A stretch of 64,000 bases of DNA from Chiloscyllium plagiosum (GCF_004010195.1 NC_057756.1:529805-593804); one strand, 5' to 3'. Counted from the stretch's first letter, positions 17,134 to 62,099 are shown. Notes: a model not told the origin generated them from the sequence alone. Program-made: numbers and translations.

Positions 17134-17169
17134 AAATTCGTAAATTAAAAGATGCATTGGGTGGCAGAG
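17134..17169 (+). CDS. Microexon 1 of an unidentified coiled-coil-like protein (36 nt, xIRKLKDALGGR)
   Basis: attttctccacag|AAATTCG...GGCAGAG|gtaagc: strong acceptor and donor, length divisible by 3, open in phase 1; LKxAL motif shared with microexon 2. Confidence 0.75.
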
Positions 17170-17560
17170 GTAAGCAAATGATCAGGTGAATGGTATGGTT
17201 CATGAATTGCCAATTTATGGTATTGCAAAGTCACTTACTTCTTTGATGGAAATATGCTTATAACATCACTTGAGCAACATATTATCAGTTGATTGTTTGG
17301 CTACGGTGCAAGATAATCTATTAACTTTATGTGGTGTTGCAATTAGAAATGGTCAGTGATTCAATGTGGATAAATCACTTTGGGAAGAATAAAGAACGTC
17401 AAAATGCAGAAAGTGAATTCTGGTTGCAGGTTTCAATATCTAGATTCAATTAATTTCCATTGCATCATCATTGGCAATGTTTGGAATTACATAATGACTA
17501 TAGCGACCTTATGTTAGTTCCAATGCAAAACAATAGCAGAGTCAACATTTCTTCAACACA

Positions 17561-17780
17561 GGAGAAAGTGAGGTCTGCAGATGCTGGAGATCAGAGCTGA
17601 AAATGTGTTGCCGGAAAAGCGCAGCAGGTCAGGCAGCATCCAGGGAACAGGAGAATCGACGTTTCGGGCATAAGCCCTTCTTCAGGAATCATTCCTGAAG
17701 AAGGGCTTATGCCCGAAACGTCGATTCTCCTGTTCCCTGGATGCTGCCTGACCTGCTGCGCTTTTCCAGCAACACATTTT
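17561..17780. mobile_element. Palindromic Penelope-like mini-element with 15-bp TSD
   Basis: 91-bp inverted arms 17599-17689 and 17691-17781 with 1 mismatch; TSD catttcttcaacaca at 17546-17560 and 17781-17795. Confidence 0.9.
17695..17722 (+). ncRNA. Minimal hammerhead core (mirror copy on the minus strand at 17658-17685)
   Basis: CTGAAGA-a-gggc-ttat-gccc-GAAA-CG-TC; weak stem I. Confidence 0.6.
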
Positions 17781-18108
17781 CATTTCTTCAACACATTCTA
17801 TTGAATGCAACAGTTACACATATGTGTGTGAAAAATGTTCATAGCTGGCAGCCTCAATCATTAAGTGAAAGTAAAACGCGAATTTCAATTGTAGAAGAGA
17901 AGAAGTGCTAACTATCAAAGGCATGATTATGCCCCAGGCTCTAGGAAACTTTAGAAAATCATTCCAAATGCAGCTACCATCTCCACAGTTGCTGTTTTGA
18001 CAAATATCACGCAGTCAGGATCTTTGTTTTTTTTGGATTTTACTCCCTTAATCTCCTCCAAAATGTTCATTTTAGTGTTATTGATGACTTTACATCCCTA
18101 CTATACTC

Positions 18109-18293
18109 ATGATTTGGAGATGCCGGTGTTGGACTGGGGTGTACAAAGTTAAAACTCACACAGCACCAGGTTATAGTCCAACAGGTTTAATTAGAAGCAC
18201 ACTAGCTTTCGGAGCGTCGCTCCTTCATCAGGTGTGCTTCCAATTAAACCTGTTGGACGATAACCTAGTGTTGTGTGATTTTTAACTTTGTAC
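18109..18293 (-). mobile_element. Hairpin Penelope-like mini-element of a different family
   Basis: 62-bp inverted arms 18141-18202 and 18232-18293 (57/62 match) enclosing a hammerhead core. Confidence 0.8.
18194..18240 (-). ncRNA. Type I hammerhead ribozyme motif with extended stem I
   Basis: Minus strand gaagcacac-CTGATGA-a-ggagc-gac-gctcc-GAAA-GC-TA-gtgtgcttc. Confidence 0.8.
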
Positions 18294-21229
18294 TATTTTC
18301 ATGCCTTGTTTGCCGTATTTTTTTTTAGCATTTAATTCATGATCTTTACTGTAACAAACGGTTGTTAAATATTGATGATATTTCTCATTCTTCCATGATA
18401 ATTTCTTCTTCCTTGATTTGACCCTAACTATTGAGCAAAGCTGCCTCTAAGATATGTTGGTACTATAACATTTCCACGAGTTATTGGTGTAGGAACTCGG
18501 TATGATCGCAACCTATAAACCAATTCTAAGAGTTTCTTTTGTGAAGTTGGTACAATATTTTGTTACAGTGAACCTCCCACCACATTATCTCATAAACTGT
18601 GAACATTCAATCAGAATTGTAACGCATTGCAATATACATTCTGAATAATTCAGTGAATCCTTCGTTTCAACATTGCCGTCTGAATAGCGAGAACGACCTC
18701 GGGATTTCGTAAAGTGTAACATAATCTGTTAGCTCAGTTGCTGCATTGCAGAGGAATGCCAACAATAGAACCTTAATATCTGTACAGGTCAAGATGCGTA
18801 TGCCAGTTCTGTGTTATCAATCTCAATGCTCATCCACAGTAACTCTCTCATTAACTTCGCCACTATCTCACAGTAATGATAGGGGTGACGATGAAAACTG
18901 ACATTTTTTTTAACTGACTCTAATGGTGCAAATGCAGTCTACAAGTTACACCTGATTCAGAAAAAAAATATCCTTCCATATCTCAAAACGTTGTATTAAG
19001 GATACCTACATGAAATATTCGCTGCTGGGTATCTGATGAACTGCTAACACAGGACAATATGTTCGCTAAATTGCAATGTATAAACTAGCCATATGCATGA
19101 CCGCAACTCAGTCTCCATTTTCTCTGATTAACTTCACTCTTGCAATTTTATTTCATTATAACATAGGTGGAAGTGGTAAGTAGGTGCTAGTAAGTAGAAA
19201 CCTAAGCATCGAATTATGTGCCCTAATTGTCAGTACCCAATGTTGATTGCTTTTCGTAGTACCACTTAATCTCTAGACCTGACGCGCTGGTCGACAGACT
19301 TCTCTGCTTCTCTTGTAGGCAGACTTCTCTGTTTTAAAAACAGCAACTAATGTTGTGTGTTGATAGTATTCTAAGAAGACAGACGATCAGAAACTTGTCT
19401 CAAAACTTGCCTGACTATTCTGTTTCATAATTTAAAATTCTTCAATGCCTCCTCTTCACACGAAATTATCAATTTGTGAAGATACATGGGAATTTCCACT
19501 CTGCGAACAAGATCACATTGCAGGTTCTGAACTTTATTACAAACAAACTAATTTCACCAAAATGACCTAATAGAGTACTTGAATACCCTCAATGCATGAT
19601 TTATGTAAACCGATTGTAAACAGATTTGATCAGCTTCCCGTATATAATGAATACATCTACAGATAGTTTTAGGGATGAAACTCTCTGAAGTGTTTCACCT
19701 GCAAAAGAAGAGGCTATATGACAATTGATCTATTTTCACAGTAATAAGAGGTCAAAAAGACATACAAAACTTTCACGCAGTCATTAAATGTGGAGAAATC
19801 ACTTTGATAACGATAGTAAACGTCAGAGTGTTCCAAAGTGAATTCTGCATGTGTGTTTCAATATCAAAATTCGATTTAAACTCCATTGTATCATTATTGG
19901 CAAAGCTTGGACGAACCTAATTGCTATAGCTGTCTTATGTTCGTTCATGTGCAGAACAGCATGAGGATCTGTGTTGAAAGAGCTGAAGTATCTTCCAAGA
20001 GTTTTTGAAGCGTTGAGCATTTCGTCATCACGAAAGAATTATTACTCCTTGCACGACATTTCTTTTCTGTGAAAATCCAAACTAAGTTACCAGGCTGACT
20101 GTCTGCTACCAGCTAATTCAGAGTGAGTTAAAATGAATGAAATCTTACAAATAACTAATTCCTTTTGTTTTGTCTCTCTGACTAGATTATTTACTACTCT
20201 GTTGTGGGCCAGGCAAATTCATGGTGCTTAGCGATTTTCCTTCATGTCCAGTTAGAAGAACATTCTAAATTCTGTGATACATTTTCTAAGTGATTCTAGC
20301 ATTATTCTTGGAGATTGCCGTCCGCCCTGTGTCCCACCTCCCGGCATGTTAAGCAAAGAAATATGAAGAGCAAAATTAACTAATAATAGAGATCTGTGGG
20401 AAAAGTAGGCCAGGATACAGCGTATACAGTATATACATTTATTTATGATTCTTCCAATACAAAAAAAACTCTACCTACAATAAGCATCAATAGTTCGAAG
20501 AGAATTATTTACATGAATCACGCGGTTAACCTGAGTAGTCATGATAACTCATCACCAGAACTGTTGACGTCTGTCCAGTTAAAAAAATCGTCTTGGCTTT
20601 GACTGAGATTCTGGACAGCATTTTATCTATCACTGTGTGATTCTTTCCACAGAATCACTTGCTTGACAGAGACAGCTGCATAATTCATACCGACATATTC
20701 ATGTTTTAAGCTAATCACCAGCAAATATTAGTTACTTTCCCTGTTACTTCGTGTCTCCTTCATAGAAAACTCCCTCAACAGTAATTGTATGGCAATTGAA
20801 ACTAAATCAGCAATAAGGACCTGTTTGAATCCACGCATTTTGAGTTACATCTCTACTCCTGTGGGGACTGCAACGTGTCTTCATCCTCAAATCATAAAAC
20901 GTATGTGTAGTAGATATTGTCAAATCTCCTAAATATAGTTGATTCTCACTTATGACTGGAGTTATGTATCAGTTAGTTGCTGTTTTGTAAACGATGGTGA
21001 GATGATTGTACTTTATATTTCAAAATGCTGTTAAAGAAACCCTCAAATAATATGATAATCGCTGGGGCAAATCTCTTGCTAATATATTCACACTGAACAT
21101 AAATATCACATTTAACTACGATATTATTTGTTAATTAAATCAATTCAGCAATACTGTATAAGTAAACTTTCACTCAGTTTTAACTTAATTCACGAAGTTG
21201 AATATTACAAATGCCCATCAATAAAAGTC

Positions 21230-21720
21230 CTCAAGATTTTGAACAGCAGTAGGCTGCTCCGCTCTTAAAATCTGTTCCACTAATCACAGGGTCTTGGTTG
21301 ATCCGTCCACACATTCACTTTCCAGCCCTTTCTCGTAAACCTTGACTCTCATACCCATCTATCTATCTCAGCTACAAATACACATAAGGAATCTGCACCA
21401 ACACGATCTGCCAGCTCTCTGTGATGTGACATTCCAAAGACTTACAGCTTACTGAGGGAATTACTTCGTTATTCAATGTTAAATTAGCAACCTTACATCA
21501 CAAGATTTTGCCCTTTGGTCCTAGACTCTCAGATAATGGTAAACATCCTCTCAATATTTCAACAAGCAAGTTCCTTATGAGGTCACCTGTCATTCTTATA
21601 AAATCCAGCAGTATAATTCCAACTCGTTTAACCTTTGCTCATAAGATAATGTATCCATACTAGGGACCATCTTGGTGAAACTTCTGTGAACCTTTAATAA
21701 TGAGTCTTTAATAATTTCCA
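21230..21720 (-). mobile_element. Old CR1-type 3' fragment
   Basis: gtcctagactctc, tcacctgtcattctt and acctttgctcataaga resemble the other minus-strand CR1 3' ends. Confidence 0.6.
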
Positions 21721-22046
21721 TATGCAAAGTTCACCATCATTGTTAATAACTGTTGATTTGTCTTTTCAGGCAATTGCCATATGCTAAATAAATTGCTCAG
21801 CATCTGTGAAATGTTTTAGAGAATTGACAAATGTGTTTTATATTAGCAAAGTTTTGAACATTTTCAGTGTTATTATTCAAAATGGAAATAAATATGTTAT
21901 TGAGAAGGTACAGTTGTGTGAAGTTATATTTGGCACTAATATTTCAGCACATGTTTAAAAAGATAAATCCATTCGTTTCATTCCATTTGCTTGTCTTATA
22001 CCAGTGGGACCACTTAAAGGACTGAAATCATATATTATCTTTTCAG

Positions 22047-22082
22047 ATGAATCCAGCCTAAAACAAGCTCTGGATAAAGCAG
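22047..22082 (+). CDS. Microexon 2 (36 nt, DESSLKQALDKA)
   Basis: atcttttcag|ATGAATCC...AAAGCAG|gtgggg: moderate donor, phase 1-1, open frame; SLKQALDKA aligns with DLNKDLTDM of microexon 5. Confidence 0.65.
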
Positions 22083-22439
22083 GTGGGGTAAACAAAAAGA
22101 AAAATAAACGGACAAAATTTTGGCCACTTCCATTATATTCCCTTTTAACGAATTATTCACATAATTTCACTCCTGACATTTATTGAATCAAGTTTTTCTA
22201 TATCGACAAATTATAAAAACATATGGCCTAAAATTCTGGTCAGCGAATTCACTCAGAAAATTTATTCTAACCGTAAATAATTGTGACAAACCTTTCTTTG
22301 TATGCTGACCCAGTTGCATCAAATATGTACAATATGTCATCAATGACAGCAAACATGGGGAGACAGGAGCAGGAGGCATAATACACACCTTATCAAACAT
22401 AATGAAGCTGCCATAACATGGGAAAATCTTAATCGCCTT

Positions 22440-24600: not shown

Positions 24601-25396
24601 GCGTGTATTGTGGAGCTAATCAGATAAAAGCTTTGGGCAGTCTGATAGGCACGCAGTCAGTTCGCATTCACGACTCATTGGCTGATAATCTGGTGAATGA
24701 TGTCAGCGTTCACAGCGTTCATTCAGTCCAATGCATTAGTGTTAAGACAATAGCAATTCTCCCGTGAGAAAGTATAAATATTTAATTCAACACTGAGAAA
24801 TACAATGTAGCCAAATTGAAAATTAATATGTATTACTTTATCAACAAGTAGACTTTAAAAATTCCGATGTATTTCAATGTAAGTACATTAACAAAACTAT
24901 TGTAAAGAATATAGTCAATAAGCGTTCAGATGGTCAGCATATGATTCCTTGGAAGCTATAGTAATTTTCATAGATGTAGTGCGTGTTCAAAATGAGAATC
25001 AAAATGCTTGGACTGAAATCCGAGATATTGCAAAATAGATTTTGCATCAGTGCAACTGTGTTCCATGAAGGAGATTCATGACATTAAGTGATCCTGAGAG
25101 GATTTAGTAGAGCTACTAGTTAAATTCATGAATCTGAGTTTACCTCTGAAGGGAATTAGGAGATTTGGTATCATCTAGCTAAAGTAAAGCAAGGTATAGT
25201 CAGAATGAGATCCTTTGCAAAAGGCATCAAAAGTGAAAGGTTCTGCAGTGGAGAAATGCTCAATATAATTTCATAATCAATGCCATTACTCCTCAAGCAA
25301 AAAAATCAAGCTAATATTCCAAGTCAGACGATATAATTTGACTTTGTGAACTCGTGCAGTGGCGCGTTTTGGAGGATTTAAATATATATATATATA

Positions 25397-25896
25397 NNNN
25401 NNNNNNNNNNNNNNNNNNNNNNNNNNNNNNNNNNNNNNNNNNNNNNNNNNNNNNNNNNNNNNNNNNNNNNNNNNNNNNNNNNNNNNNNNNNNNNNNNNNN
25501 NNNNNNNNNNNNNNNNNNNNNNNNNNNNNNNNNNNNNNNNNNNNNNNNNNNNNNNNNNNNNNNNNNNNNNNNNNNNNNNNNNNNNNNNNNNNNNNNNNNN
25601 NNNNNNNNNNNNNNNNNNNNNNNNNNNNNNNNNNNNNNNNNNNNNNNNNNNNNNNNNNNNNNNNNNNNNNNNNNNNNNNNNNNNNNNNNNNNNNNNNNNN
25701 NNNNNNNNNNNNNNNNNNNNNNNNNNNNNNNNNNNNNNNNNNNNNNNNNNNNNNNNNNNNNNNNNNNNNNNNNNNNNNNNNNNNNNNNNNNNNNNNNNNN
25801 NNNNNNNNNNNNNNNNNNNNNNNNNNNNNNNNNNNNNNNNNNNNNNNNNNNNNNNNNNNNNNNNNNNNNNNNNNNNNNNNNNNNNNNNNNNNNNNN
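25397..25896. other. Assembly gap (500 N) adjacent to an (AT)n run
   Basis: Run of N; the round length suggests a placeholder. Confidence 1.
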
Positions 25897-27252: not shown

Positions 27253-27279
27253 AAGAGCGATTGAAGCAATGTCAGACAG
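27253..27279 (+). CDS. Microexon 3, type A (27 nt, EERLKQCQT)
   Basis: gtctttacag|AAGAGCG...CAGACAG|gtaaag; paralog at 40868-40894 keeps both splice sites and the peptide pattern. Confidence 0.85.
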
Positions 27280-27620: not shown

Positions 27621-27694
27621 AGTGCATATAAATGTAACACCATTCCATTTTAAATTTTGGCTTGAAACATTCCATCTTTGCTTAGCAATATGCT

Positions 27695-29547: not shown

Positions 29548-29574
29548 AGTCTAAAGAAGGTCCAACAACGCATG
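29548..29574 (+). CDS. Microexon 4, type B (27 nt, ESKEGPTTH)
   Basis: ttctctttcag|AGTCTAA...CGCATG|gtaaat; paralog at 51965-51991. Confidence 0.85.
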
Positions 29575-30904: not shown

Positions 30905-32120
30905 ACGAACTTTGGGGAGATGACAAAAGTGATTGATGTGGACAGGGTGGTAGATGTAGTTTAGCAAAACATTAAACAATGTGCCTAATGGGAGGCAGAT
31001 ATTATAAGGTGAATTCACATGTCGTGAACTGGTCAGATGGATACAAAATTGGCTTTATCATAGAAGACAGATAGTAGCATTGTAAAGGTGCTTTTTTTCT
31101 GATTGGAGATCTATGACCCCAATGGTATTCCGTAGAGATCAGTGTTCGTCACCGTGTTGTTTGCATTTTAAATGTAAACGAGTTGGAGGAAAACGTAAAT
31201 GGCCAGATTTGTAAATTTGCTGACAGAGCAAAGATTAAGGGAGCTATCAATAGTGAGGAGGATTGTCAGAGGAAACAGCAGGGTAGATATAGGTGAGAGA
31301 CATAAGTGGAGGAATTACAGATGTTGTTTAATCCATACAAGTCTTAGGCGATGCATTTTCTAAGATTGAATGCAGGCAAGTTGTGTACAGCAAATGCAGA
31401 ACCCTTAGTAGCATAATCAAACGGAGGGATCTGGGCATACACGTCCAAAGTTACTCGAAAGTGGCAGTACAAGTGGATAAGGTGATAAAGAAGTCATGAA
31501 CTCTCCTTTCAATTTTCAATAGGGCATAGAGTATAAAAAAATGCTAAGTCGTATTTCAGCTGTGTAGACATTTAGACAATCCACATTTGGAATATTGTGT
31601 ACAATTCGAAGGGCTAGACTACCAGAAGAGTTTGGAGGCTTCGGTTAATGCACACAAACTGCTTACCAGGATGTTGTCTGGTTTAGAGATTAATAACTGT
31701 GAAGAAAGATTGGATAAATTGAGTTCGATTTCACTTGAATATCAAGGATGAGGTGACCTGATAGAAGCTTACTAAAGTTTGAGAGTTTTGTCTAGAATGG
31801 ATATTCAGAATATTTTCCGCTCGTCAGAAATGGGGAACATAGGTTTAAAGAAAAATGTGATAAGTTTAAAAGAGATGTGAAAGGCTAGTTTTTTACACAG
31901 ACTGTGGAAGGTTCGTGGAATGTGTTGCCAGAAGAGGTGGTGAAGGTACATACGGCAGCAATGTGTAAGAAACATCTTGACAGAGCTATGAATAGGCAGG
32001 AAATCAAAAGATATAGGCCACGAAGAAGCAAAAGGTTTCCAGATGAGAAATGCATCATGTGACATCGCAGTTTTGGTTAAGTAAAAGGGCCTTATGATAT
32101 GCTGTACTGTTTTTTGCTCT
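30905..32120 (+). mobile_element. Older CR1-type 3' part
   Basis: Degenerate RT (aaatttgctgac; ttggaatattgtgtacaattc) and tail. Confidence 0.8.
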
Positions 32121-33500: not shown

Positions 33501-33527
33501 ATTTAAACAAAGATCTTACAGACATGG
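33501..33527 (+). CDS. Microexon 5, type C (27 nt, DLNKDLTDM)
   Basis: ttattttacag|ATTTAAA...GACATGG|gtaaac; paralog at 54043-54069 has an identical acceptor region (ctaagttaatttattttacag). Confidence 0.85.
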
Positions 33528-40867: not shown

Positions 40868-40894
40868 AAGAACAATTGAAGCAATGCCAGAAAG
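40868..40894 (+). CDS. Microexon 6, type A' (27 nt, EEQLKQCQK)
   Basis: ttttcttcacag|AAGAACA...CAGAAAG|gtaaag; paralog of 27253-27279. Confidence 0.85.
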
Positions 40895-42809
40895 GTAAAG
40901 TGTTGAAGTAAATGGCAAGCGCACAAGTTTGTAATGATTTGAATGTTTTTCAAACGATAGTTAATGATTTTGTTAATGAGATAAATATATTAATACTTCA
41001 TTTTAGATCTCAGTTGGAAACGTCCTACATTTGGTGAGCAAAATGCCATGCCCTGTGTTGTATTTACCATAATCCCTCAGAGCAGTACAAAACTAGGCAA
41101 CTGAAACTGTATGTGTCAGTGCGGAGTTTACATCATGCCCATACAAATTTAATCAAATCTAAATTGTGATTTAATAATCGGAATGATGACACTTCAGTGT
41201 GACATTTTCATTGCCTCACTTATTTAATACATTAGTGTGAATGCACTTCACTGTAACTTTTTGATCAATTCTTGTAGGAGGTATCTCCCAATTGACTTTC
41301 TGATACACCATTGCATCAACAGCCACTGAAATAATTGTAGTTCTAACAAATCTACAGAACCTTTGTAGGTTACAGGATATGTGAAATGTCTTTTTTTGTT
41401 GTCCCATACTTCCATGCAAATTTTTGACCTAATTTGGTTAGAGAACAATTGCGTTCTGAATGCCGGCAGAAGGGATTTAACAAAGGAGAAGTTACAGATT
41501 ACATCCCAAGGATATTTCAAATGATTAAAAGAGATAATTGGTTACGCATTGTGAATACAGTTCAATAAAAACCGAAAGAACTGCGGATGCTGTAAATTCG
41601 AATACAAAAATAGAAGGAGTTGGATAAGCTCAGAAGGTCTGGCAACATGTGTAAAGAGAAATCAAAGTTAAGTTTTCGTGTTCGATGGAGTAAGGATTGG
41701 CAGACCTGAAATGTTAGCTTTGGTTTTTCTCCACAGAGTCGAAAAGTGTGGCGCTGGGAAAGCATAGTATATCAGGCAGCATTGGAAGATCAAGAGAGTC
41801 AATGGTTCGGGTATGAGCCCTTCATTGTGGAGACAGAAGGGGCTGTGACATAAATAGAGGGTGGAGGTGGGGCTGGGGGAAGGTAGCTGGGAAGGCGATA
41901 GGAGGATGCAGGGTGGGGGGTAATTGTGATAGTTTGTTGGGGAGGATTGAACGGATAGGTGGGAAGGAAGATGGACAGGTAGGACAGGTGAAGAGGGCAG
42001 TGTTGAGTTGCAGTGATGGATCTGGGATGAGGTGGGGGAGGGGAGATTTGGAAACTAGTGAAGCTGATGTTGATGTCATGTGGCTGAAGCGTCCTGAGGT
42101 GAAAGTAGAGACATTCTACATGCAGTTAGCTGGTGTCATTGATTTGGTGGTGGAGGAGGCCCAGGACTTACATGTCCTTGGAGGAGTGGGAGAGGGAATT
42201 GAAATGGTTGGCCATAAAGCGATGTGGTTGTTTAGTGTGTGCATCGCAGAAGTGTTTCCTGAACTGCTTCACAGGTTGATGTCCTGTCTCCCTGATGTAG
42301 AGGAAACCACATCAAGTGCAATGGATGCAGTAGACGAGGTGGTTGGACGTGCAGGAAAATCTCCAACGGATGTGAAATCATCCTTTGGGGCGTTGGACAG
42401 AGGTGAGGGGAAGGGGTGAGGGGGAATGTGTGGGTGCATATTTTACAACTCATACAGTGACAAGAGAAGACACTGTGGAGGGTGAGTTGTTAGAGAGTGT
42501 GGACGTAATGAGGGAATGGTCTTTGTGGAATGCTGTTACAGGTGGGGAGGGAAATATATCTTTCATGATGGGGTCTGACTGTAGAGGCGGAAATGATGGA
42601 GGATCACATGTTGTATCCAGAGCCTCATGGGCTGGAAGGCGAGGACCAAGATGGTTCTATCCTTGTTGTAGTTGCAGGGGTGGTGTTTGAAGGCAGAAGT
42701 GCAGGCAGTGGAGGAGAGGCACTGGACAGCATTTTTGATCATGTTGGAGCGGTTTTGCGGTCCTTGAAAGAGGAGGACATTTGGGATGTGCTGGAGTGGA
42801 ATTGCTCCT

Positions 42810-45800
42810 CCAGAGGGTCCACTTCGGAGCAGGGAGAGCCGGGAGGAGGTGACGTTGTGCGAGGTGATTGTCGGGAAGGCCGGTAAGTATATTTAAACTT
42901 CTTACCGACAAGCCAGCGAGGGAGGAGCGAGCAAAGGACTTTTGGGAAGGATAAGTAGAACAGGTTATATTTGTGTGGTTACAAATTCAGGAAGATGGAT
43001 GGAAGCTTAGAGCTAGGACCAGCAGAGTTGTTTTCTCTGGTTTGCTGCCTGTTCCACGTGCTAGTGATGTGAGGAATAGGGAGAGAAAGGAGTTGAACAC
43101 GTTGCTGCAGGGATGGTGCAGGAGGGAGGGTTTCGCGTTTTTGGATAATTGGAGCTCTTTCTGGGGTAGGTGTGACCTCTGCAAGCAGGGTGATGTTCAT
43201 CTAAACCAGAGGTGTACCAATATCCTGGGTGGGAAATTCGCTAAAGCTATTAAGGTGGGTTTAAACTAATACAGCAAGGGGATGGGAACCAAAATTGTAG
43301 GACAGGTACAGAAGAGGATGAGAGTAGGGAGTTCCCAAATGAAGTATTTGACACTGGCAAGCGAGAACCTGGTTTGAAGTGTGTGTACTTCAATGCGAGG
43401 AGCATCTAAAATAAAGTGGGTGAACTGGCAGCATGAGTTGGTACCTGGGACTTCGATGATGTGGCCATTACAGAGATATGGATAGAGCAGGGACAGGAAT
43501 GGCTGTTGCAGGTTCCGGGATTCAGATGTGTCAGTAAGAACAGAGAAGATGGTAAAAGAGGTGGAGGTGTGGCATTGTTGATCAGGGACAATATTACAGT
43601 TGTAGAAAGGATGTTTGGGGAGCCGTTAACTGAGGTAGTATGGGCTGAGGTTAGAAACAGGAAATGAGATGGCACCATGCTGGGAATTTTCTATAGGCTT
43701 CTGAATAGTCCCAGAGATGTAGAGGTAAAGATAGCAAAGATGATTCTCGATAGGAGTGAGACAGGCAGGGTAGTTGTCATGGGGGACATCAACTATCCAA
43801 ATATTGACTCGGATCACTACAGTACGAGTACTATAGATGGGTCAGTTTTTGGCCAGTGTGTGCAGGAGGGCTTCCTGACACCGTATGTTGCCAGGCCTAC
43901 AAGGGGCGAAGCCACTTTAGATTTAGTACTGGGTAACGAGCCTGGCCAGGTGTTAGATTTGGAAGGAAGTGAGCACTTTGGAGACAGCGATCACACTTCT
44001 GTCAGGTTTACTTTAGTGATGGAAAGGGATAGGTGTACACCACCGAGCAAGAGTTATAGGTTGGGAAAGGGAAATTACAATGCAATTAGGAAAGATTTAG
44101 GAAGTGTAGAATGAGGAAGGAAACTGCAGGGATGAGCACATTAAAAATGTGGAGCTTATTCAAGGAAAAGCTCTTGTGTGTCCTAGATAAGTATTTACCT
44201 GTTAGGCAGGGAGGAAGATATAGAATGCATGAGCCATGGTTTACTTAGGAAGTGGAATCCCTGGTCAAGAAAAAGAAGAAGGCTTATGTTAGGACAAAAC
44301 GTGAAAACTCAGTTAGGGCGCTTGAGGGTTACAAGGAAGTCAGGAAAGACCTAAAAAGAGAGCTCAGAAGAGTCAGGAGGAGGCATGAGAAGTTGTTGGC
44401 GGATAGGATCAGGGTTAACCCTAAGGCTTTCCATAGGTATGTGTTTTAAAAAAATTCACAAGGTCAAGGACCAGGCTCGCAGGAAAACATGTATTGGGAC
44501 ACAATTTTAACCCTTTCACCACATTCCACTGCTTGGCCCAATGCATGTGTTGCATAATGATTCACACATGTATTGGGACATAATTTTACACCACAGTATG
44601 TCAGGAATAAAAGAATAACGAGAGTTAAATTAGGGCCAATCAAGGATAATAGTGGGATGCTGTGTGTGGAGTCAGAGGAGATGGAAAAGCACTAACTATT
44701 TTTCGACAATGTTCACTATAGAAAATGAAAATGTTGGCGAGGAAGATACAAAGATACTTTCATCTACACTAGAAGAGATTGATGTTCAAAGGAAGAGGTA
44801 TTAGAAATACTGCAGAGTGTGAAAATAGACAAGTCCCCTTGGCCGGATGGGATCTATCCTAGGATCCTCTGGGAAGCAAGGGAAAAGATTGCCGAGCCTT
44901 TGGCATTGATCTTCAAATCATCATTGTCTACAGGAATAGTGCCTGAGGACTGGAGGATAGCAAATGCGGTTCCCTTGTTCAAAAAGGTTTGGTAGAGACA
45001 ACCCTAGTAATTACAGACCAGTGAGTCTCACTTCAGTTGTTGGTAAAGTGTTGGAAAAGGTTATAAAAGATACGATTTATAACCATCTAGAAAAGAATAA
45101 TCTGATCAGGGACAGTCAGCACGGTTTTGTGAAGGGTAGGTCGTGCCGAACGAATCTTATTGAGTTTTTTGACAAAGTGACCAAACAGGTAGATGAGAGT
45201 AAACCGGTTGATGTGGTGTATATGGATTTCAGCAAGGTGTTTGATAAGATTCGCCACAGTAGGCTATTATACAAAATGCGGAGGAATGGGATTGTGGGAG
45301 ACATAGCAGTTTGGATCAGTAATTTGCTTACTAAAAGAAAACAGAGGGTTGTAGTTGATGGAACATGTTCATCTTGGTGTCCATTTACTAGCGGCATACC
45401 GCAAGGGTCGGTGTTGGGTCCACTGCTGTTCGTCACTTTTATAAATGACCTGGATGAGGGCTTAGAAGGGTGGGTTAGTAAATTTGCGGATGACACTAAG
45501 ATCAGTGGAGTTGTGGATAGTGACGAAGGATGTAGTAGGTTGCAGAGAGACATAGATAAAATGCTGTGCTGGGCTGAGAGGTGGCAAATGGAGTTTAATG
45601 TGGACAAGTGTGAGGTGATACACTTTGGCCGGAGTAATCGGAATGCAAAGTACTGGGCTAATGGTAGGATTCCTGGGAGTGCAGATGAGCAGAGAGATAG
45701 TGGTGTCCATGTACACAGATCCCTGAAAGTTGCCACCCAGATTGACAGGGCTGTTAAGAACGCATACAGTGTTTTGGCCTTTATTAATAGAGGGATTGAG

Positions 45801-46357
45801 TTCCGGAACCAGGAGGTTATTCTGTAGCTGTACAAAGCTCTGGTATGGTCACACTTGGAGTATTGTGTACAGTTCTGGTCACCGCATTATAAGAAGGATG
45901 TGGAAGCTTTGGAAAGGGTGCAGAGGAGATTTACTAGGATGTTGCCTGGTATGGAAGGAATGTCTTACGAGGAAAGGCTGAGGGCCTTGAAGGTTGAGAC
46001 GTGACTTAATAGAGACATACAAGATAATCAGAGGGTTACATAGGGTGGAGAGGGAGAGCCTTTCTCCAAGTATGGAAATGGCAAACATGAGGGGTCACAA
46101 CTTTAAAGTGAGGGGAGATAAGTATAAGACAGTCGTCAGAGGTAGTTTCTTTACTCTGAGAGTAGTAAGGGTATGGAATGCTTTGCCTGCATCGGTAGTA
46201 GATTCGCCAAGTTTAAGTGCATTTAAGTCGTCATTGGACAGGCATATGGACGTACATGGAATAGTGTAGGTGGGATGGGCTTCAGATTAGTATGACAGGG
46301 TGGCGCAACATCGAGGGCCGAAGGGCCTGTACTGAGCTATAATGTTCTATGTTCTAT
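42810..46357 (+). mobile_element. CR1-type LINE (ORF1 C-terminus, APE, RT) nested in the Penelope element
   Basis: VVFSGLLPVPR and HLNQRCTNIL (ORF1); GGGVALLI; MGDINYPNID; RT ORF 44964-45827 with FADDTK; tail tgttctatgttctatg. Confidence 0.95.
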
Positions 46358-46919
46358 GCCATAGAGGTGGAGGAATTGAGAGCAAGGGATCATGTTTTTA
46401 CTGGGAGGGGGCACTGGTGGGAGGAGGTGTAGTCAAGGTATCTGTGGGAATTGGTGGATTTGAAATAGATGTCCTTGTTGAGTTGATTAGCAGAGATGGA
46501 AACGGACAGGTCCAAAAATGAGAAGGAGGTATTGGAGATGGTCCATGTGAACTTGAGGTCGGGGAGGAGGTGTTTGTGAAGTTAACGAACAGTTCAATCT
46601 CCTTGTGGGAGCACGAGGTGGCGCTGATACAGTCATCAATGTAGCAGAGGAAAAGGCTGGGGAATGGTACTATTGTGACTGCAGAATATGGACTGTTCCA
46701 CATATGCTACAAAGTGGAAGGCATAGCTGTGCCCTATGTGGATGCCCATGGCTGTCCCTCTGGTCTGTAGCATTTGGGAGAATTCGAAGAAGAAGTTGTT
46801 GAGGGTGAGGACCAGTTCTGCCAATCGAAAAAATGTGTCAGTGGAGGAGGAAAGAAGGTCGGCAGGAAAGGAACAGAGGGCTTGTCGGCCATCGCCATGG
46901 GGGATGGACGTCATAGTAT

Positions 46920-49300
46920 CTTTTTTACAAATTCTTTTTGTTATACATTTGTGGGACTTGGGCATCGCTGGCTGGCCAGCATTGATAAACCATCCCTATT
47001 TGCTCTTCCAAAGGTATTGGTTAGCCGCCTTTTTAATCACTGTAGTCCACCTTCTGTGGGTTGACCCACAATGCCAGTCGGGAGTGAGTTTCAAGAGTTT
47101 GACCCAATGGCTGTGAAGGAACAATGGTATATTTCCAAGTCAGGATGGTGAGTGGATTGGAGGTGAACTTGTGTGTGGTGGCATTTCTCAGTATATGCTG
47201 CCCTTGCCCTTCTCAGTGGAAGTGTTCATGGGTTTGGAAAATGCTGTCTAAAGATCTCTGGTGAATTTTTGCAGTACATATTGTAAATAGTACACACAGC
47301 TGCTACTAAACGCCAGTGGTGGAGGGATTGAACGTTAAAAGATGTGGTGCCAATCAAGCGGGTTGCTGGATGTTGTCAAGCTTCTTGACTGTTGTTGGAG
47401 TTGCACCCCTCCAGACAAGTGGGGATTATGCCATCGCACTCCTGACTTCTGCCTTGTAGATGATGGACAGACTTTGGGGTGTCAGGAGTTGAGACTAGTC
47501 TCAATTAGTCTCTGATCTGCTCTTGAGTTTCTGGTCAATAGTAACGCCAAGGATGTTGACAGTGCGGGATTCAGTGATGGTAATATCGTTGAATGTCAAA
47601 GGGTGGTAGTTAGAGTGTCTCTTATTTGTGATGGTCAATGTCTGGCATTTGTGGGTGCGAATGTTACTTGCCACTTGCTGAACCAAGCCTGGACAATTTC
47701 CAGATCATGCTGCAATATCTGAGGATTCGCGAATCATGCTGGACACTGTGTAATCATTGGCGAACATCCAAATTCTCACCTAATGACAGAGGCACATCAT
47801 TGATGACGCAGCTGAAGATTCTTGGGCCGAGGATACTACCATGGGGGACTCCTGCAGTGATAGCCTGGAGCTGAGATAACTGACCCTTCAAAACCACGAC
47901 CATCTTCCTTTGTGCCAAGTATGACTCTAACCAGTGGAGTGTTTGCCCCTTGATACCAATTGATTCCAGTTTGTCCAGGGCTCTTTGATTTTATACTTGG
48001 TCAAATGCGGCATTGATGTCAAGGGCTGTCACTCTCATCTCATGTCTGGAATTCAGTTCTTTTGTCCATGTTTGAACCAAGGTTGTAATATGATCAGGAA
48101 CTGAGTGACTCTGGCTGAACCTAAACTGGTTGTTGCTGAGCAGGTGCTGCTTGATAACGCTATTGTTGACTCCTTCCATCACTTTACTGGTGATTGAGAG
48201 TAGATTGTTTGAGTAGTAGTTGGCTGTGTTGGCTTTTTCCTGCTTTTTGTGCACAAAACATACCTGGGCAATTTTCTACATTGTTGGGTAAATGCCAGTG
48301 TTGTAACTGTGCTGGGAGAGCTTGGTTGGGGGAGTGTAAAGTTGTAGAACAAATGTCTTCAATATTGTTTCCGGAAAGTTATCAGGGCCCATTGCATTTG
48401 TAGTATCCAGTGCCTCCAACCACTTCTTGACACCATGTGGAGTGAATTGAATTGGTTGGAGATTAGTATCTGTGATGCAGGGGATCACTTGAGGAGCCCG
48501 AGATGCATCATGAACTCAACCCTTCTGACTGAAGATTTTTTGCGAATGCTTCAGCCTTACCTTTTGCACTGATGTGTTGAGCTCCTCCATCATTGAGGAT
48601 GGGGATATTTGTGGATTCCCGTCCTCCAGTGAGTTGTTTGATTGACCATCACCATTCGTGACTGGATGTAAAAGGACAGCAGAACTTAGATCTGATCCGT
48701 TGGTTGTGGGATAACTTAGCTCTGTCTATCACTTGCCCTTTTATGCAGTTTGGCATGCAAGTTTGGTAGCTTCACCAGGTGATACCTCATTTTGAGGTAT
48801 GCTTGATGCCACACCTGGCATGGCCTCCTGCACTCTCCATTGATCTAGGGTTGAACCTCTGGCTTGATGGTAATGGCTGAGTGGGGGATATGCCTGGTCA
48901 TGAAGTTGCAGATTGTGCTGGAGTACAGTTCTGCTGATATTGATGACCCACAACGCCTCATAAATGCCCAGTCTTGAGCTGCTAGATCGGTTCAAAGTCT
49001 GTCCCATTTAGCACGGTGACAGTGCCACAAAACATGATGGTTGATATTCTCAGTGTGAAGGCGGGACTTTGTCTCCACAAGGAGAGTGTGGTGGTCACTT
49101 TTACCTATACTGTCATGGACAGATGCTGCTGTAGCTGGCAGATGAATAAGGATGAGGTCAAATATGTTTTTTTCGTCTTATTGTTTCCTTTACCACCTGC
49201 TGCAGAACCAGTCTAGCAGTTATATCCTTTAGGATCCGACCAGCTCGATCAGTAATGCTTGGTGATGGACATTGAAATCCCCCACCCCAAGTATATTTTG
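46920..49300 (-). mobile_element. CR1/L2-clade LINE nested in the Penelope element
   Basis: ALDINAAFDQV; LLSITSKVMEG; AMGPDN; NILGVTIDQKL. Confidence 0.85.
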
Positions 49301-51964: not shown

Positions 51965-51991
51965 AATCTAAAGGAGATCCAGAAATTCATG
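51965..51991 (+). CDS. Microexon 7, type B' (27 nt, ESKGDPEIH)
   Basis: ttctcttacag|AATCTAA...ATTCATG|gtaagt: consensus donor; paralog of 29548-29574. Confidence 0.85.
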
Positions 51992-54042: not shown

Positions 54043-54069
54043 ATCTTAACGAACTTCTTAAAGATACAG
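54043..54069 (+). CDS. Microexon 8, type C' (27 nt, DLNELLKDT)
   Basis: ttattttacag|ATCTTAA...GATACAG|gtaaaa; paralog of 33501-33527. Confidence 0.85.
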
Positions 54070-56100: not shown

Positions 56101-56140
56101 TGTACAAGAATTCCTCCTCTATTTGCCATATTCAAGTATA

Positions 56141-57505: not shown

Positions 57506-58365
57506 ATTAAGCAGGTGGTTGAATAATGCTGGCATTTAAGTTTTCATTAAGTTTTGTGTAATTGCCTTGGCAGAATCATAACTATATAAAGAGTGTCTTT
57601 TCCAATGTAACAATCCTAATTTGGAGTATACTGCTTCTCATAATTAACAAATGTCAGAATATTCTTCCCTCTGACATACTTCACAATATCTCTCGAAAGG
57701 GCACAGCAATAACATTGCTTTCTATTTTTTTCGCAGCAAATGTACTGCAAAAAAACAATTAATGCCGCATTATGAATGAGCAGCCTATAAATATTTGTTG
57801 AAATGTATTTCAGGGAATGTGCTAATTGTTATCTGTGAGGAATATTGCATGAAATTGTCACCCAGGCTGTCTATTGTTCATGATCCAGGGCACCACTTAA
57901 ATATTCTTAATTTATTGTGAATGTTATCTTTGACACTTATTAAACTTCGTAGAGAACGAAGGATTAACCCATTTCATCCAATCATCACAACCTTGATGGA
58001 TCTTATCTCATTTCCTTTCAACAGCCATCCACAGCTATCTTGCAAAATTCCTTACCTTCTGGCACTGCATGGACAAGCTTACTAATCAACTTGCCCAATC
58101 ACTCTGTTTTATGACACCTGGGCTATCAAGGTTCAGTTCTTCACTTCCATAAAACAATCAATTGTGTAGCTACTGTACTATAAGTGAAGTTTCATTTCTT
58201 GCAGAATCCATAGTTGTTCAGACATTAATTGATTGAATTAAAAGAAGAGGTGCTTAATGAAAATGAACCTAATTAATTACTTGCTATTGACTTTTTTCTG
58301 GCATTCATAACAAACATAATATTGTATCCCTTCAATTGAAATTAATAATTATCTTATGTATTCAG

Positions 58366-58392
58366 CCAAAGCATTGATAAAAAAGAATGACG
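58366..58392 (+). CDS. Microexon 9 (27 nt, AKALIKKND)
   Basis: cttatgtattcag|CCAAAGC...AATGACG|gtaaag: same length, phase and donor hexamer as the type A exons; continues the heptad pattern. Confidence 0.65.
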
Positions 58393-58699
58393 GTAAAGTA
58401 TCACAAACAATTTTAATCATACAATGAGTTTTGTTCTAATGGTTCTATACTAATTGCGCATAAGGATAAAATGTATTTCGTTGAAATAAAACTATGTCTT
58501 TAAGTTATTATGAAATTCTGTCACATTTGCTTAACTTGGTTGAAATTTATGCTTTGCATCCTCTAAAGATATATTTGAGAATTTACTGCATGCTACGTTT
58601 TACAGGTGTAAGTACAGAGCAAATTAGATAGTAATTAATAATTACTTTTGCTTGCCAGATGCATTTAGTACCTGTCATTTACAAGCTGCCAATGAATCT

Positions 58700-61650
58700 C
58701 CCACTTGAACCATGGCATTCTTTATTAGAGGTTCGTCCACAGAGCTGTGTGGACAGAGGCATCAAACCTATGAGCCAGTTACAACGACTGAACTACAAAT
58801 GGCTCCAAGTGAGGTTGTTGAGTGTCTTTAATGAAGGCTTACTGGTCTTGATCTTCCAGTGTCCATACATTGTTCTTCAAGATGGTCGAAGTCGCAGTTA
58901 AAAAAATTGATTTGGAAGGAGATTTGTAAAGTTGAAGCAATGCATTTTGTAGCTGTTGCCACTGCCAATGCTGTTCACTGACTGTGCACTGATTGATTGC
59001 TTATCGAGATGGATGGGGTGTAAGTAAATTAACTAGTTTACTTTTATCCCTGAAAGCGTAGTTCACTTGATTGCTGTTGATATTGCAATGTTTCAGGCAA
59101 GAGGATTGGAAGATGCAATCTAAGGATCTTTGGTGAATACGAGCAGGGCATCTTGGACATGATACACACAGTGCATTCTTTTAGATTAGATTACTTAAAG
59201 TGTGGAAACAGGCCCTTTGGCCCAACAAGTCCACACCGCCCCCCCGAAGCGCAAACCACCCATGCCCCTACATTTACCCCTTACCTAACACTACGGGCAA
59301 TTTAGCATGGCCAATTCACCTGACCTGCACATCTTTGGACTGTGGGAGGAAACCGGAGCACCCGGAGGAAACCCACGCAGACACGGGGAGAACGTGCAAA
59401 CTCCACACAGTCAGTCGCCTGAGGCGGGAATTGAACCCGGGTCTCTGGCGCTGTGAGGCAGCACTGTGCCACTGTGCCGCCCATTTGTGATCTGTAGTGG
59501 AGTATGTGGATGCTTTTGCATGTCGCGCCAATCTAACAGGTTGCACTTGGATAATGAAAGGTTTCTTCAGTTTTGTTGGAGGTGCATTCGAGTAGACAAT
59601 TGTGGAGTATTCTGTTGCACCCTTGACCCGTGCCTTGTCGATTTAGAACAAACTTTGCGAGTTGCTTTCTGCAGCATTCCTAACTTCTGAAATGTTCTTG
59701 TAGCCACTCTATTGAAAGGAGTCCAGTTCAGTTCCTGATCAATGGCATCGCTGGATGAATGAAACTGGGGTACTCTGTGATGGTAATACATTTAAATAAC
59801 AAGGAGTGGTGGTAAATTATTTGAGAAATTATTTGATTCTTGCCTGAAATTTGTGCGGGCCAAATATAACTTGTTAATTGCCAGCTTGCGGTTTTATATT
59901 GTCCAAGTTTGTTGAACATGGAATTCTTTAGTATCTGAGGAGTAGCAATCAGAACTGCAACTACAAACTTCTTCTTTTGTGTCAGGCATTACTCTTACCC
60001 GTGGAGAGCTTTCGACCGGATTACCATTGATCCTGTTATTGCAAACACTCCTTGATGTAAACTCTGTTCAATGCACCCTTGATATCAAATGTGTTCATTA
60101 TCCCCTCCCATCTGGAAATCAACTCTTTCCTCCACGTTTGAATCAAGCATGCAATAAGTTCAGAAGCTGAGTGGTCTGTGTGGAACCAAAACTGGACATG
60201 AGTCAGCAGGTTGTTTCTGAACACATGTTGCATCACAGCACTATCGATGATATCTTCACTGTTTTACTAATCATCGAGATTAATGGCTGCTAATTTGTTG
60301 GATTGGACTTGTCTTATCTTTTTTATACATGAGACACCTGGACAAGGTGCCAGTGTTGTAAGAAGACTGGAACAGCTTGGCCAGGAGTGCAACAAGTTCT
60401 GGAGCACACATCTTCTGTACCTTTGCGAAAATGTTGTCAGGACCCGTAGCTTTTGGAGTACCCAGCACCTCCAAATTTTTCTTGATATTATATCGAATGA
60501 ATCGAATTGGCCAAAATGGGGAACCTGCCTTCTGGGGACCACTGGTTGAGACCGAGATGGATTTGCTTGACATTTCTGGCTGAAGATTGTCGTGAGTTCC
60601 GCAGTCTTATTTTCTGCACAATGCGTTGGGCTTTTCCATAATTGTGTGTAATGATAATTATGGAAGCTTATACTCCAGTGAGTTATTTAATTGTCTACCA
60701 CCATTCAGGACTAATGTGACAGACATGGAGAGCTTAGATTGGATCCCTTGGCATGCAAGTAGATTTAACTGGTGGCTTCACCAGATTGAAACCTCATTTT
60801 TGATTTTGAATGTTTGGTGCTGCTCGTAATATGCCCTCCTACTCTCTGCATTATAACAATGTTGCCCTTCTACAGGCTCCATTGAGACAATGTTGATCCT
60901 TGATTTTGTAGTAATAGTTGAGTGGAGGATTTCAGGGTTATTAGTTAACAGATTGTCTTAGAGTGCGATTCTGCTACCGCTGATGGCCCACAACACCACA
61001 TGGATGTGCAGACATGTTCCAGGTTGTCTCATTTAACACAGTGATAGTGTCACATGACACAGTGTATGCTGGAGTTTGGACTTCATCTCCACAAGGTCTG
61101 TGCAGTGGTGTCTGCTACTGATGCACGCCATTGACAGGTATATCTGCCACATGCAGTTTGGTGAGATAGAGTTCAAATTCGTCTTGCCTTCTTTTTGGTT
61201 CCTTCACCACTTACTGCAGGCCCATTCTAACAGTTATATACTTTAGGATATGTCTTTAGATTTGTAGTGCTGGTCCCGAGTCACTCCTGATGATGGACTT
61301 GGAAATTTCCCAATCATAATATCTTTGTCACCTTCAGTGCTTTCTTCAGGTGGTATTCAATGTGGAAGAGTGTTGAGTGATCACCTGAAGAAAGATGTGG
61401 TAACAAACAGGTCTTTTCCTTGTCCGTTCTTACCATGATACCGCACAAATTCATAGTTGCTGCAAGTATTGTTGAGGACTACCTGGGCAACTTCATCTTC
61501 ATTCTATACCATTGTGCTGCTAACTTGGCCGAGTCTGTTCTGCTGCTGGGATAGGATATGTCCAAGGATGGTGATTGTAATGCCTAGAACATTGTCCGTT
61601 AGGTATGATCCCGTGATTATGCCTATATCAGGCTGATTATTTGAGTAGAA
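58700..61650 (-). mobile_element. Old copy of the CR1/L2-clade LINE
   Basis: KATGPDNI; APELVALLAKLFQSSYNTG; FDIKGALNRV; colinear with 46920-49300. Confidence 0.8.
59183..59482 (-). mobile_element. Young V-SINE (HE1-like)
   Basis: Highly similar to 11190-11467 with an intact core; ttagattagattac tail. Confidence 0.92.
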
Positions 61651-62063
61651 TGAATGTGCAAGATTACTGTGTAGACTGCAAGAGAATGACACTGAATCAT
61701 AATGCAATTTGGAAAGTGAAAGCAAATGCAATGTACTTGATGATGAAATGATTTGTGAGGCTCCTCTGTAGTTGGTAAGACTATAGTCAGATCTGATCCA
61801 TCGGTTATTAGGACTGAGCTCTGCGTTTCATTGCATATTACTCTAATCTACTAAAGCACTGTCACCAATCTCTTAAAATTCGCTGTACCACAGCAAAGCA
61901 ATCTCAATATATGCAATAAAATGTATTGCATTTTGTTATGCTTCTTCTGTACAGTTGTAAAGTATGCAAGGTAAATCGGTATTGAACTGGGTAAACATGT
62001 GCTTTTCACGCATCTGTCTCAATGTTCCACATTGATTTCTGAACGATTCTTTATCTTTTGCAG

Positions 62064-62099
62064 AATTGCAAAAAATGGCTCAAGATTTCGATGACTTAG
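62064..62099 (+). CDS. Microexon 10 (36 nt, ELQKMAQDFDDL)
   Basis: ttatcttttgcag|AATTGCA...GACTTAG|gtaagt: strong sites, phase 1-1, open frame. Confidence 0.75.
   Translation, partial: NCKKWLKISMT

Follow-up and report, generated by a model that had tools for sequence, protein, structure and literature searches.

The window, i.e. the whole stretch of 64,000 nt from Chiloscyllium plagiosum analysed here, corresponds to positions 529,805–593,804 of a 10.7-Mb contig (NC_057756.1) in a genome of 3.56 Gb, and ten microexons can be identified on its + strand (Table 1). The first-pass annotation had proposed exactly such a chain, with exons of 27 or 36 nt, a CAG acceptor and a G/GT donor, and all ten segments were found at the positions that it implied, each preceded by a pyrimidine-rich tract and the CAG acceptor and ending in G directly before the GT of the donor. 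The donor reads GTAA in nine cases out of ten and GTGG in exon 2. Joined together, the exons form 297 nt which in phase 1 are free of stops, as had been claimed, while the other two frames contain 8 and 11 stops, and the three peptides quoted in the earlier annotation are all present in the translation.

Table 1. Microexons in the 64,000-nt window (positions counted from the first nucleotide of the window).
Microexon	Position	Strand	Length (nt)	Characteristics	Composite score
1	17134..17169	+	36	Phase 1; CAG acceptor, G/GTAAG donor	23.2
2	22047..22082	+	36	Phase 1; CAG acceptor, G/GTGG, the weakest of the ten donors	26.4
3	27253..27279	+	27	Cys-bearing; opens duplicated unit A	27.4
4	29548..29574	+	27	Gly/Pro linker exon, unit A	
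5	33501..33527	+	27	Third exon of unit A	23.4
6	40868..40894	+	27	Cys-bearing; opens duplicated unit B	30.2
7	51965..51991	+	27	Gly/Pro linker exon, unit B	19.8
8	54043..54069	+	27	Third exon of unit B	26.7
9	58366..58392	+	27		21.8
10	62064..62099	+	36	Phase 1	30.2

The order of exon lengths in the window, 36-36 followed by seven exons of 27 nt and a last one of 36 nt, is an atypical stretch of the larger array described below. For microexon 1 there is a weaker alternative donor that would give an exon of 27 nt, and its sequence is similar to three 36-nt array exons located upstream. Microexon 4 falls under the threshold of the composite score because of its own composition, and microexon 9 is the sole window exon with C as its first base, so that the split codon gives Ala. 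The intron before microexon 7 is 11,070 nt long and contains a LINE-type element. At 31687–31722 (+) there is a 36-nt segment that may be a decayed member of the Cys-bearing exon class; its pyrimidine tract is weak, its last base is A in place of G and its donor is poor. It may be due to chance and was left out of the exon count.

A strict scan of the window, which required CAG, G/GT, a tract with a pyrimidine content of 60% or more and an open phase-1 frame, gave 15 sites on the + strand versus 6 on the - strand; 100 first-order Markov simulations averaged 4.9 sites (sd 2.6, max 13). When the scan was restricted to GTAA donors it gave nine sites on the + strand and none on the - strand, against a simulated mean of 0.28 (max 3), and chance is therefore no explanation for the ten segments. 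Together with the open phase-1 frame, these strand and simulation controls support the earlier claim of a host gene on the + strand to which the segments belong as internal coding microexons.

Exons 3–5 (unit A) and 6–8 (unit B) constitute a duplicated three-exon unit, with identities of 23/27 for exons 3 and 6, 20/27 for exons 4 and 7 and 18/27 for exons 5 and 8, and with collinear intron remnants that are 74–88% identical. Alignment by BLAST revealed 87% identity between exon 3 and exon 6 over 46 nt, flanks included, and 74.6% over 197 nt when exon 5 and its upstream intron were compared with unit B; conservation of this intron flank equals that of the exon itself. The two units differ at 14 places in residue-changing codons and at five in non-changing codons, and these counts gave no signal of purifying selection in this young duplicate pair.

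The array is not confined to the window. In a composition-filtered scan of 264 kb the + strand carries 28 exons of 27 nt and 16 of 36 nt, the - strand none and two, respectively. Across 314 kb a score combining splice sites and composition, which was trained on 61 of the exons later recovered and is thereby partly circular, gave 79 hits on the + strand versus one on the - strand. The 79 hits represent 72 non-overlapping candidate microexons, 39 of 27 nt, 26 of 36 nt, four of 21 nt, two of 15 nt and one of 39 nt. The ten-exon chain of the first-pass annotation thus stands as far as its exons are concerned but not in its scale, since it is a small part of an array of at least 72. Downstream (3') of the window the array resumes from contig position 599,571, and between 958 and 978 kb five further non-overlapping hits were found on the + strand and none on the - strand. 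As read from the sequence, the array would extend from ~475 kb to at least 971 kb on the contig, i.e. over about 496 kb or more, and the exons probably number more than 100 in total.

Across the whole genome a 33-place motif describing one exon type is matched 12 times, and ten of these matches are located on the + strand of this contig between 651,319 and 963,167; a control with the pattern reversed gave 1+1. A shorter motif for the 36-nt class gave 168 genome matches versus 183 for its control, the matches listed ending ahead of this contig, and therefore carries no information on the array. No such circularity affects the - strand counts, the number of motif matches in the genome or the periodicity of the product (see below).

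Outside the window the commonest unit is a pair of one 36-nt and one 27-nt exon, which together encode 21 residues or three heptads, and four successive blocks each open with similar 36-nt exons. The introns have a median length of 2.7 kb and reach 18.7 kb, and directly upstream of window exon 1 lies a stretch of 18.7 kb devoid of exons. Weak donors occur in some members of the array. Mean pairwise identity, which the composition filter raises and which is to that extent partly circular, is 0.50 among exons of the 36-nt class (n = 27) and 0.44 among those of the 27-nt class (n = 34), compared with 0.28–0.29 in introns and 0.26 for random sequence, and the similarity is hence limited to the exons, where codon position 2 is the most conserved, followed by position 1 and position 3. 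A DNA search of the genome with a whole exon pair of 1.1 kb, intron included, returned only the match to itself; because of this, and of the restriction of similarity to exons, the array is not a dispersed repeat.

When 71 of the exons are joined a conceptual product of 714 residues is obtained, the open frame of which is given by construction since candidates containing stops were excluded. It consists to 62% of Lys (18.5%), Glu (18.3%), Leu (15.3%) and Asp (9.5%), with six aromatic residues, 2.4% Gly and only two Pro. The split codon at the exon junctions encodes Glu or Asp in 58 of 70 cases, and of the 24 intervals between the 25 Cys residues nine are exactly 21 residues long. The first-pass annotation had described the product as a coiled coil interrupted by Gly/Pro linkers, and both parts of this description are supported. 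For the window peptide the 3.5-residue periodicity is 0.73 versus a shuffle mean of 0.21, a value matched by 2.3% of 1000 shuffles, and for the 714-residue chain the local power at 3.5 residues is 0.83 versus 0.22 ± 0.04 in 300 shuffles (max 0.36). Both Pro are located in the two linker exons of the window, one of them in microexon 4. The chain has the properties of a coiled coil, namely the 3.5-residue periodicity, few helix breakers and a composition rich in Lys, Glu and Leu. When proteins of 133–2000 residues were searched with the natural 75-residue ORF that surrounds exon 2, none of the 38 candidates had E ≤10, which says little in either direction.

We consider it likely, judging from the sequence, that a single very large gene on the + strand encodes a long coiled-coil rod and that the ten segments are among its internal coding exons. 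Such a gene would consist of symmetric phase-1 microexons, mostly of 27 and 36 nt, arranged collinearly in tandem, and its product would be a long alpha-helical coiled coil rich in Lys, Glu, Leu and Asp. With 36- and 27-nt exons alternating over much of the array, each pair would add 21 residues and one Cys, and Cys would therefore recur at 21-residue spacing, which could allow disulfides between the chains of a parallel coil. The stretch with the two linkers is the only expected helix break in 714 residues and is therefore probably a hinge. Growth of the array probably proceeded by tandem duplication of two- or three-exon units, as demonstrated for exons 3–5 and 6–8. Owing to the symmetry of all exons, the rod would change in length and the frame stay intact whenever an exon is duplicated, lost or skipped. 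This agrees with the first-pass proposal of 9- and 12-residue units that can each be skipped in frame, the 27- and 36-nt phase-1 exons of which were recovered. Microexons between kilobase-long introns are difficult targets for the spliceosome, and near-consensus splice sites together with a purine-rich coding sequence acting as splicing enhancer (68% purine in the exons versus 49–50% in the flanks) probably aid their recognition.

Another possibility, put forward already in the first-pass annotation, is that the product is a membrane protein of butyrophilin/BG type and the exons encode its cytoplasmic tail, with signal, Ig V and transmembrane exons upstream and optionally a B30.2 domain at the end. 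Chicken BG is the one described case of many tiny exons encoding a heptad coiled coil (PMC4046983). The Pfam search covered 61 ORFs of the window (at least 100 aa, both strands) and 523 + strand ORFs across 314 kb, of which 111 (at least 60 aa) are from the upstream 48 kb and 412 (at least 65 aa) from the array; twelve ORFs crossing locus borders were excluded from the set. The matches were to reverse transcriptase, endonuclease, RNase H and SCAN, with a few unrelated ones under the family cut-offs. No V-set or other Ig domain, nor any other host domain, was found in the 111 + strand ORFs within 48 kb upstream of the first microexon, and no exon for B30.2 or another host domain in the 314 kb covered by the 61 window ORFs and 523 + strand ORFs. 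The upstream 48 kb contain seven hydrophobic 19-residue stretches, and of the two nearest to the array one is without a donor and the other has donor-like sites, with no convincing exon seen. The first-pass annotation had named Ig and transmembrane exons upstream and B30.2 or C-type lectin exons downstream as features to look for; in the DNA covered, no Ig, B30.2 or lectin exon and no convincing transmembrane exon was found.

Among the SPRY matches listed (150 of 293 candidates scored) one is located on the contig, at 4,577,660 (+), 3.6 Mb away, and a looser motif revealed one exon similar to those of the array at 4,506,114 (+), 72 kb upstream of it, which hints at a relative with B30.2. However, 10 kb at each of two places near 4.5 Mb gave a single candidate exon apiece. 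As 150 of 1319 V-set candidates and 150 of 293 SPRY candidates were scored in the genome-wide searches, domain exons of a BG or butyrophilin gene could lie further out. The exons themselves also argue against such a tail, being of 27 and 36 nt and not of 21 and 24 nt (21 nt in four of the 72, 24 nt in none), separated by introns of kilobase length and present in at least twice the number of the largest BG gene. Altogether we regard a butyrophilin/BG-type tail as improbable.

The nearest known design is the chicken BG tail with its 21-nt exons. According to PMC4046983 this tail is encoded by 13–36 exons whose length is 21 nt or in some cases 24 nt; codons straddle the exon borders, and the exons together encode a heptad coiled coil. 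Butyrophilins have a few heptad exons ahead of B30.2. Chicken BG and the shark array share a run of tiny exons, codons split between neighbouring exons and a heptad coil whose length is set by exon number, and short heptad-encoding exons serving as a coiled-coil spacer are common to mammalian butyrophilins and the array. Compared with chicken BG, the shark array differs in its 27- and 36-nt exons, often paired to 63 nt, its at least 72 exons spread over at least 0.5 Mb with kilobase introns, its Cys every 21 residues and in that the search of the upstream 48 kb revealed no exon for a signal peptide, Ig V domain or transmembrane segment; compared with butyrophilins, which combine their few heptad exons with B30.2, no B30.2 was found in 314 kb. 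A literature search found nothing on coiled-coil arrays of 27- and 36-nt exons or on heptad exons in shark butyrophilins.

It could also be that the array is not one gene but several tandem genes, a bank of alternative exons or a largely decayed array that is not expressed. Neither a first nor a last exon was found, and the 18.7-kb gap together with the similar 36-nt exons opening four blocks could mark repeated gene-sized units; since both gene ends are missing in the DNA examined, no CpG island was found in 314 kb and the gap is present, the array could span more than one transcription unit. Decay would fit the predominance of residue-changing differences between the young duplicates, the decayed-looking exon at 31687 and the weak donors of some members. 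However, 71 consecutive candidates retain length class, phase and splice sites while their introns are at background identity, which decay would not preserve, the intervals between array members showed neither start nor stop nor domain exons, and the 36/27 alternation yields a continuous heptad only when neighbouring exons are spliced together. These readings taken together appear more doubtful still than a butyrophilin/BG-type tail. The other lead of the first-pass annotation, a type II C-type lectin receptor (CD23 or DC-SIGN type) whose extracellular neck the exons would encode ahead of lectin exons, is highly improbable and already close to refuted. A 21-residue periodicity, regular Cys and symmetric phase-1 exons would suit an extracellular oligomerising stalk. 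However, the 43 Lectin_C matches found in the genome (all 133 candidates scored) all lie outside the 10.7-Mb contig, and three N-x-S/T sequons in 714 residues, with ~2 expected by chance as estimated from composition, give no sign of a glycosylated stalk.

A single gene for a long coiled-coil rod, the reading that we favour, resembles several other systems in part. The CD23 stalk has 21-residue repeats with one exon per repeat, and CD23-type necks share with the array the 21-residue repeat, the coiled-coil stalk and the exon-wise modularity; the array differs in having no lectin domain on the contig, far more repeats and a 21-residue unit split over two exons. Collagen genes have exons of 27, 36, 45 and 54 nt, and as in the shark array the exon lengths are multiples of 9 nt, the arrays very long, the exons symmetric and the rod extended by exon duplication. 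Collagen itself was considered as the identity of the product and ruled out, as there is no Gly-X-Y repeat, Gly is scarce and the power at period 3.0 is 0.24, compared with 0.83 at 3.5. In the micro-exon genes of Schistosoma nearly all exons are symmetric microexons that can be skipped in frame, giving short secreted variable peptides; the array is similar in its symmetric, skippable microexons and differs in that it would encode a long regular rod and in belonging to a vertebrate and not to a flatworm.

A further step, which we propose as a tentative possibility, is a single gene of at least half a megabase with more than 100 symmetric 27- and 36-nt exons, encoding a rod of more than 1000 residues that has a single Gly/Pro hinge and a Cys for every three heptads. 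Such a gene would lie outside the described families and would be the coiled-coil counterpart of the exon arrays of collagen and titin-PEVK; duplication and skipping of single exons could adjust its length.

The locus is also a warning for annotation, as ORF-based and many ab initio methods would be blind to half a megabase of this contig. If spliced as read here, the array would encode by far the largest known coiled coil built heptad-block by heptad-block, from a number of exons at least twice that of the largest chicken BG gene and across introns of kilobase length. It would then be a natural test of how the spliceosome locates 27-nt exons, dozens of them in succession, between large introns, and the length of the rod would be evolvable or regulable in steps of 9 and 12 residues.

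Scanning the 64,000-nt window for segments of 27 or 36 nt between a CAG acceptor and a G/GT donor recovered, on the + strand, all ten microexons proposed in the first-pass annotation, each where it had been placed (see table). The ten segments sum to 297 nt and, as had been claimed, join into a phase-1 frame free of stops, while the other two frames contain 8 and 11; the peptides quoted there are likewise present in the translation of the window. Introns among the ten range from 2,051 to 11,070 nt, and the one between exons 2 and 3 includes an assembly gap of 500 N (25397–25896), which could conceal an exon. When a CAG acceptor, a tract with at least 60% pyrimidine, a G/GT donor and an open phase-1 frame were demanded, 15 sites were found on the + strand and 6 on the - strand, compared with 4.9 ± 2.6 in Markov simulations (n = 100) using the same criteria. 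Adding a GTAA donor left 9 sites on the + strand and 0 on the - strand, compared with 0.28 per simulation (maximum 3). Chance is ruled out as the source of the ten segments.

Microexons and retroelement matches in the window
Feature	Position	Strand	Remarks
Microexon 1	17134-17169	+	CAG acceptor, G/GT donor
Microexon 2	22047-22082	+	CAG acceptor, G/GT donor
Microexon 3	27253-27279	+	CAG acceptor, G/GT donor
Microexon 4 (linker)	29548-29574	+	CAG acceptor, G/GT donor
Microexon 5	33501-33527	+	CAG acceptor, G/GT donor
Microexon 6	40868-40894	+	CAG acceptor, G/GT donor
Microexon 7 (linker)	51965-51991	+	CAG acceptor, G/GT donor
Microexon 8	54043-54069	+	CAG acceptor, G/GT donor
Microexon 9	58366-58392	+	CAG acceptor, G/GT donor
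Microexon 10	62064-62099	+	CAG acceptor, G/GT donor
Endonuclease match	43668-44111	+	LINE-type element
Reverse transcriptase match	44961-45824	+	E 2.8e-32, LINE-type element
Reverse-transcriptase fragment	3427-3834	-	E 8.4e-15

The scale first suggested, ten exons, proved far too modest when the window (contig positions 529,805–593,804) was analysed with its flanks, 100 kb on the upstream and 150 kb on the downstream side (314 kb of a 3.56-Gb genome). When the first 264 kb were scanned with a filter on composition, the + strand yielded 28 candidates of 27 nt and 16 of 36 nt, the - strand 0 and 2, respectively. A composite score of acceptor, donor and residue composition, trained on 61 exons chosen by eye and circular for these, with the minus strand as control, gave 79 matches on the + strand and 1 on the - strand over the 314 kb. 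Among the former, 72 are non-overlapping (39 of 27 nt, 26 of 36, 4 of 21, 2 of 15 and 1 of 39), the earliest confident member of this array lying at about 475.3 kb of the contig. Beyond the 3' end of the window the exons mostly alternate between 36 and 27 nt; junctions from 36 to 27 nt and from 27 to 36 nt number 22 each, with median introns of 2.1 kb and 3.2 kb, respectively. A degenerate motif of 33 places, derived from one 27-nt exon type, matched 12 times genome-wide, ten of these, all + strand, on the contig of the window from 651,319 to 963,167, while the reversed-pattern control gave 1+1 matches; a looser motif returned the same ten together with a background of 35 scattered matches. 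Five further non-overlapping + strand matches, and none on the - strand, were found in the 20 kb at contig 958–978 kb. From the motif matches and these five it follows that the array spans at least about 496 kb, a lower bound since its 3' end lies beyond the DNA examined, and extrapolation at the observed one exon per 4 kb would give roughly 120 exons.

The candidates carry near-consensus splice signals, with C at -3 of the acceptor in 57 of 71 and tracts of 75% pyrimidine, G as the last exon base in 66/71, and A at +3 (49/71) and +4 (56/71) of the intron. Such sites likely help the recognition of 27-nt exons amid kilobase-long introns. Purines make up 68% of the exons but 49–50% of the flanking introns, and the purine-rich coding sequence likely doubles as a splicing enhancer that would aid microexon recognition.

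When aligned, the 36-nt class (n = 27) showed a mean pairwise identity of 0.50 and the 27-nt class (n = 34) one of 0.44, both figures being inflated by the composition filter on the candidates. Identity of the introns, beginning 31 nt upstream and 7 nt downstream, was 0.28–0.29, the random expectation being 0.26, and the limits of conservation therefore coincide with the splice sites. Within exons, conservation is highest at codon position 2, intermediate at position 1 and lowest at position 3. This pattern is read as that of exons constrained in length and phase and not as that of transposon fragments. That the segments are copies of a dispersed repeat is ruled out by this splice-site-bounded conservation and by a genome search with an entire 1.1-kb exon pair and its intron, which returned the self-match only.

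Sequence comparison within the window identifies exons 3-4-5 and 6-7-8 as copies of one three-exon unit. Their exons are identical at 23/27, 20/27 and 18/27 positions, and BLAST revealed four collinear same-strand remnants between the units (74–88% identity), one of them a 197-nt stretch of intron plus exon preceding exons 5 and 8; a fifth match, on the reverse strand (293 nt, 73.7%), lies outside the duplicated unit. Differences between the copies fall at 5 positions in residue-keeping and 14 in residue-changing codons, so the residues of this pair show no purifying selection, and only length, phase and splice sites are preserved. A 36-nt segment at 31687–31722 (+), similar in translation to the Cys-bearing 36-nt exon class and having a weak pyrimidine tract, a terminal A and a poor donor, may be a decayed exon of the first copy.

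The introns also hold transposon sequence. A LINE-type retroelement at 41800–47100, on the strand of the gene, occupies part of the 11-kb intron that separates exon 6 from exon 7 and coincides with a G-rich, higher-GC part of the composition profile. Immediately upstream of exon 1 a stretch of 18.7 kb lacks microexons; it includes window positions 1–17133 with the reverse-transcriptase fragment, a 181-nt sequence duplicated in tandem (6415–6777) and a strongly negative GC skew at 4–16 kb. It is probably an intron enlarged by transposon insertions, although it could represent a border between transcription units. Within another intron of the array, at about contig 620.4 kb (locus L004, 6517–6780, +), an ORF matches the SCAN domain above the family cut-off (E 2.8e-07) and is probably part of a gag-like retroelement remnant.

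Joining 71 candidates of 21, 27 and 36 nt gives a conceptual product of 714 residues (2,145 nt), whose frame is stop-free by construction while the other frames contain 75 and 59 stops. It is rich in K (18.5%), E (18.3%), L (15.3%) and D (9.5%), carries a net charge of -43 and contains 25 Cys, 17 Gly, 2 Pro, 6 aromatic residues and 3 N-x-S/T sequons; the codon split at exon borders encodes Glu in 45 and Asp in 13 of 70 cases. Hydrophobic periodicity, which was not used in exon selection, has its maximum at 3.5 residues, with a value over all 714 residues of 0.83 compared with 0.22 ± 0.04 in 300 shuffles (maximum 0.36), and 0.73 compared with 0.21 for the 98 residues of the window, a value equalled in 2.3% of 1000 shuffles. 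Cysteines are spaced by exactly 21 residues in 9 of 24 intervals, in agreement with a 36+27-nt exon pair encoding three heptads. Both prolines fall in linker exons 4 and 7, so the window holds the only site where the predicted rod should bend or break. The original proposal of a hidden gene of symmetric-phase microexons encoding a segmented coiled coil is right in kind.

To place the array in a family, 61 window ORFs of at least 100 aa on both strands were scanned against Pfam and, throughout the 314 kb, 523 ORFs of the + strand, leaving aside twelve that straddle locus borders. Matches were to reverse transcriptase, endonuclease, RNase H and SCAN, with a few unrelated ones below family cut-offs; neither Ig, SPRY, lectin nor other host domains were found among these ORFs. 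The natural ORF around exon 2 gave no match when compared with proteins of 133–2000 residues, which is weak evidence. A C-type lectin neck, an early lead together with its proposed downstream lectin exons, is close to excluded, since the genome's 43 Lectin_C matches (every candidate scored) all lie on other contigs.

The butyrophilin/BG lead fared better in design than in membership. Chicken BG genes are described as having signal, Ig V and transmembrane exons followed by 13–36 exons of 21 or 24 nt, which together form a coiled coil (PMC4046983). The flanking Ig and B30.2 exons suggested by the first-pass annotation were not found among the ORFs scanned across the 314 kb. On this contig V-set (best 150 of 1319 candidates scored) and SPRY (best 150 of 293) were found only at a distance, at 10.2 Mb and 4.58 Mb. 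A single exon closely resembling the 27-nt type of the array lies at 4506114 (+), 72 kb upstream of the SPRY match at 4577660–4577983 (+), the only one on the contig among the matches listed; the ten kb at each of these two places hold one candidate microexon. The 4.506-Mb exon may point to a relative ending in B30.2. Most SPRY matches, among the best 150 of 293 candidates, form dense clusters at about 9–34 Mb of another contig (G000:C37), suggesting that B30.2 genes have expanded there to very large numbers.

Literature searches found no description of 27/36-nt coiled-coil exon arrays of this kind, and the closest described design is the chicken BG tail. As there, microexons would encode a coiled coil; in contrast to BG, the shark exons are mostly of 27 and 36 nt and no Ig V exon occurs within 48 kb upstream of the array in the Pfam scan, and on these two points membership of BG fails. 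The shark array is rated as a putative variant of a known principle, the building of a coiled coil from an array of microexons as in BG.
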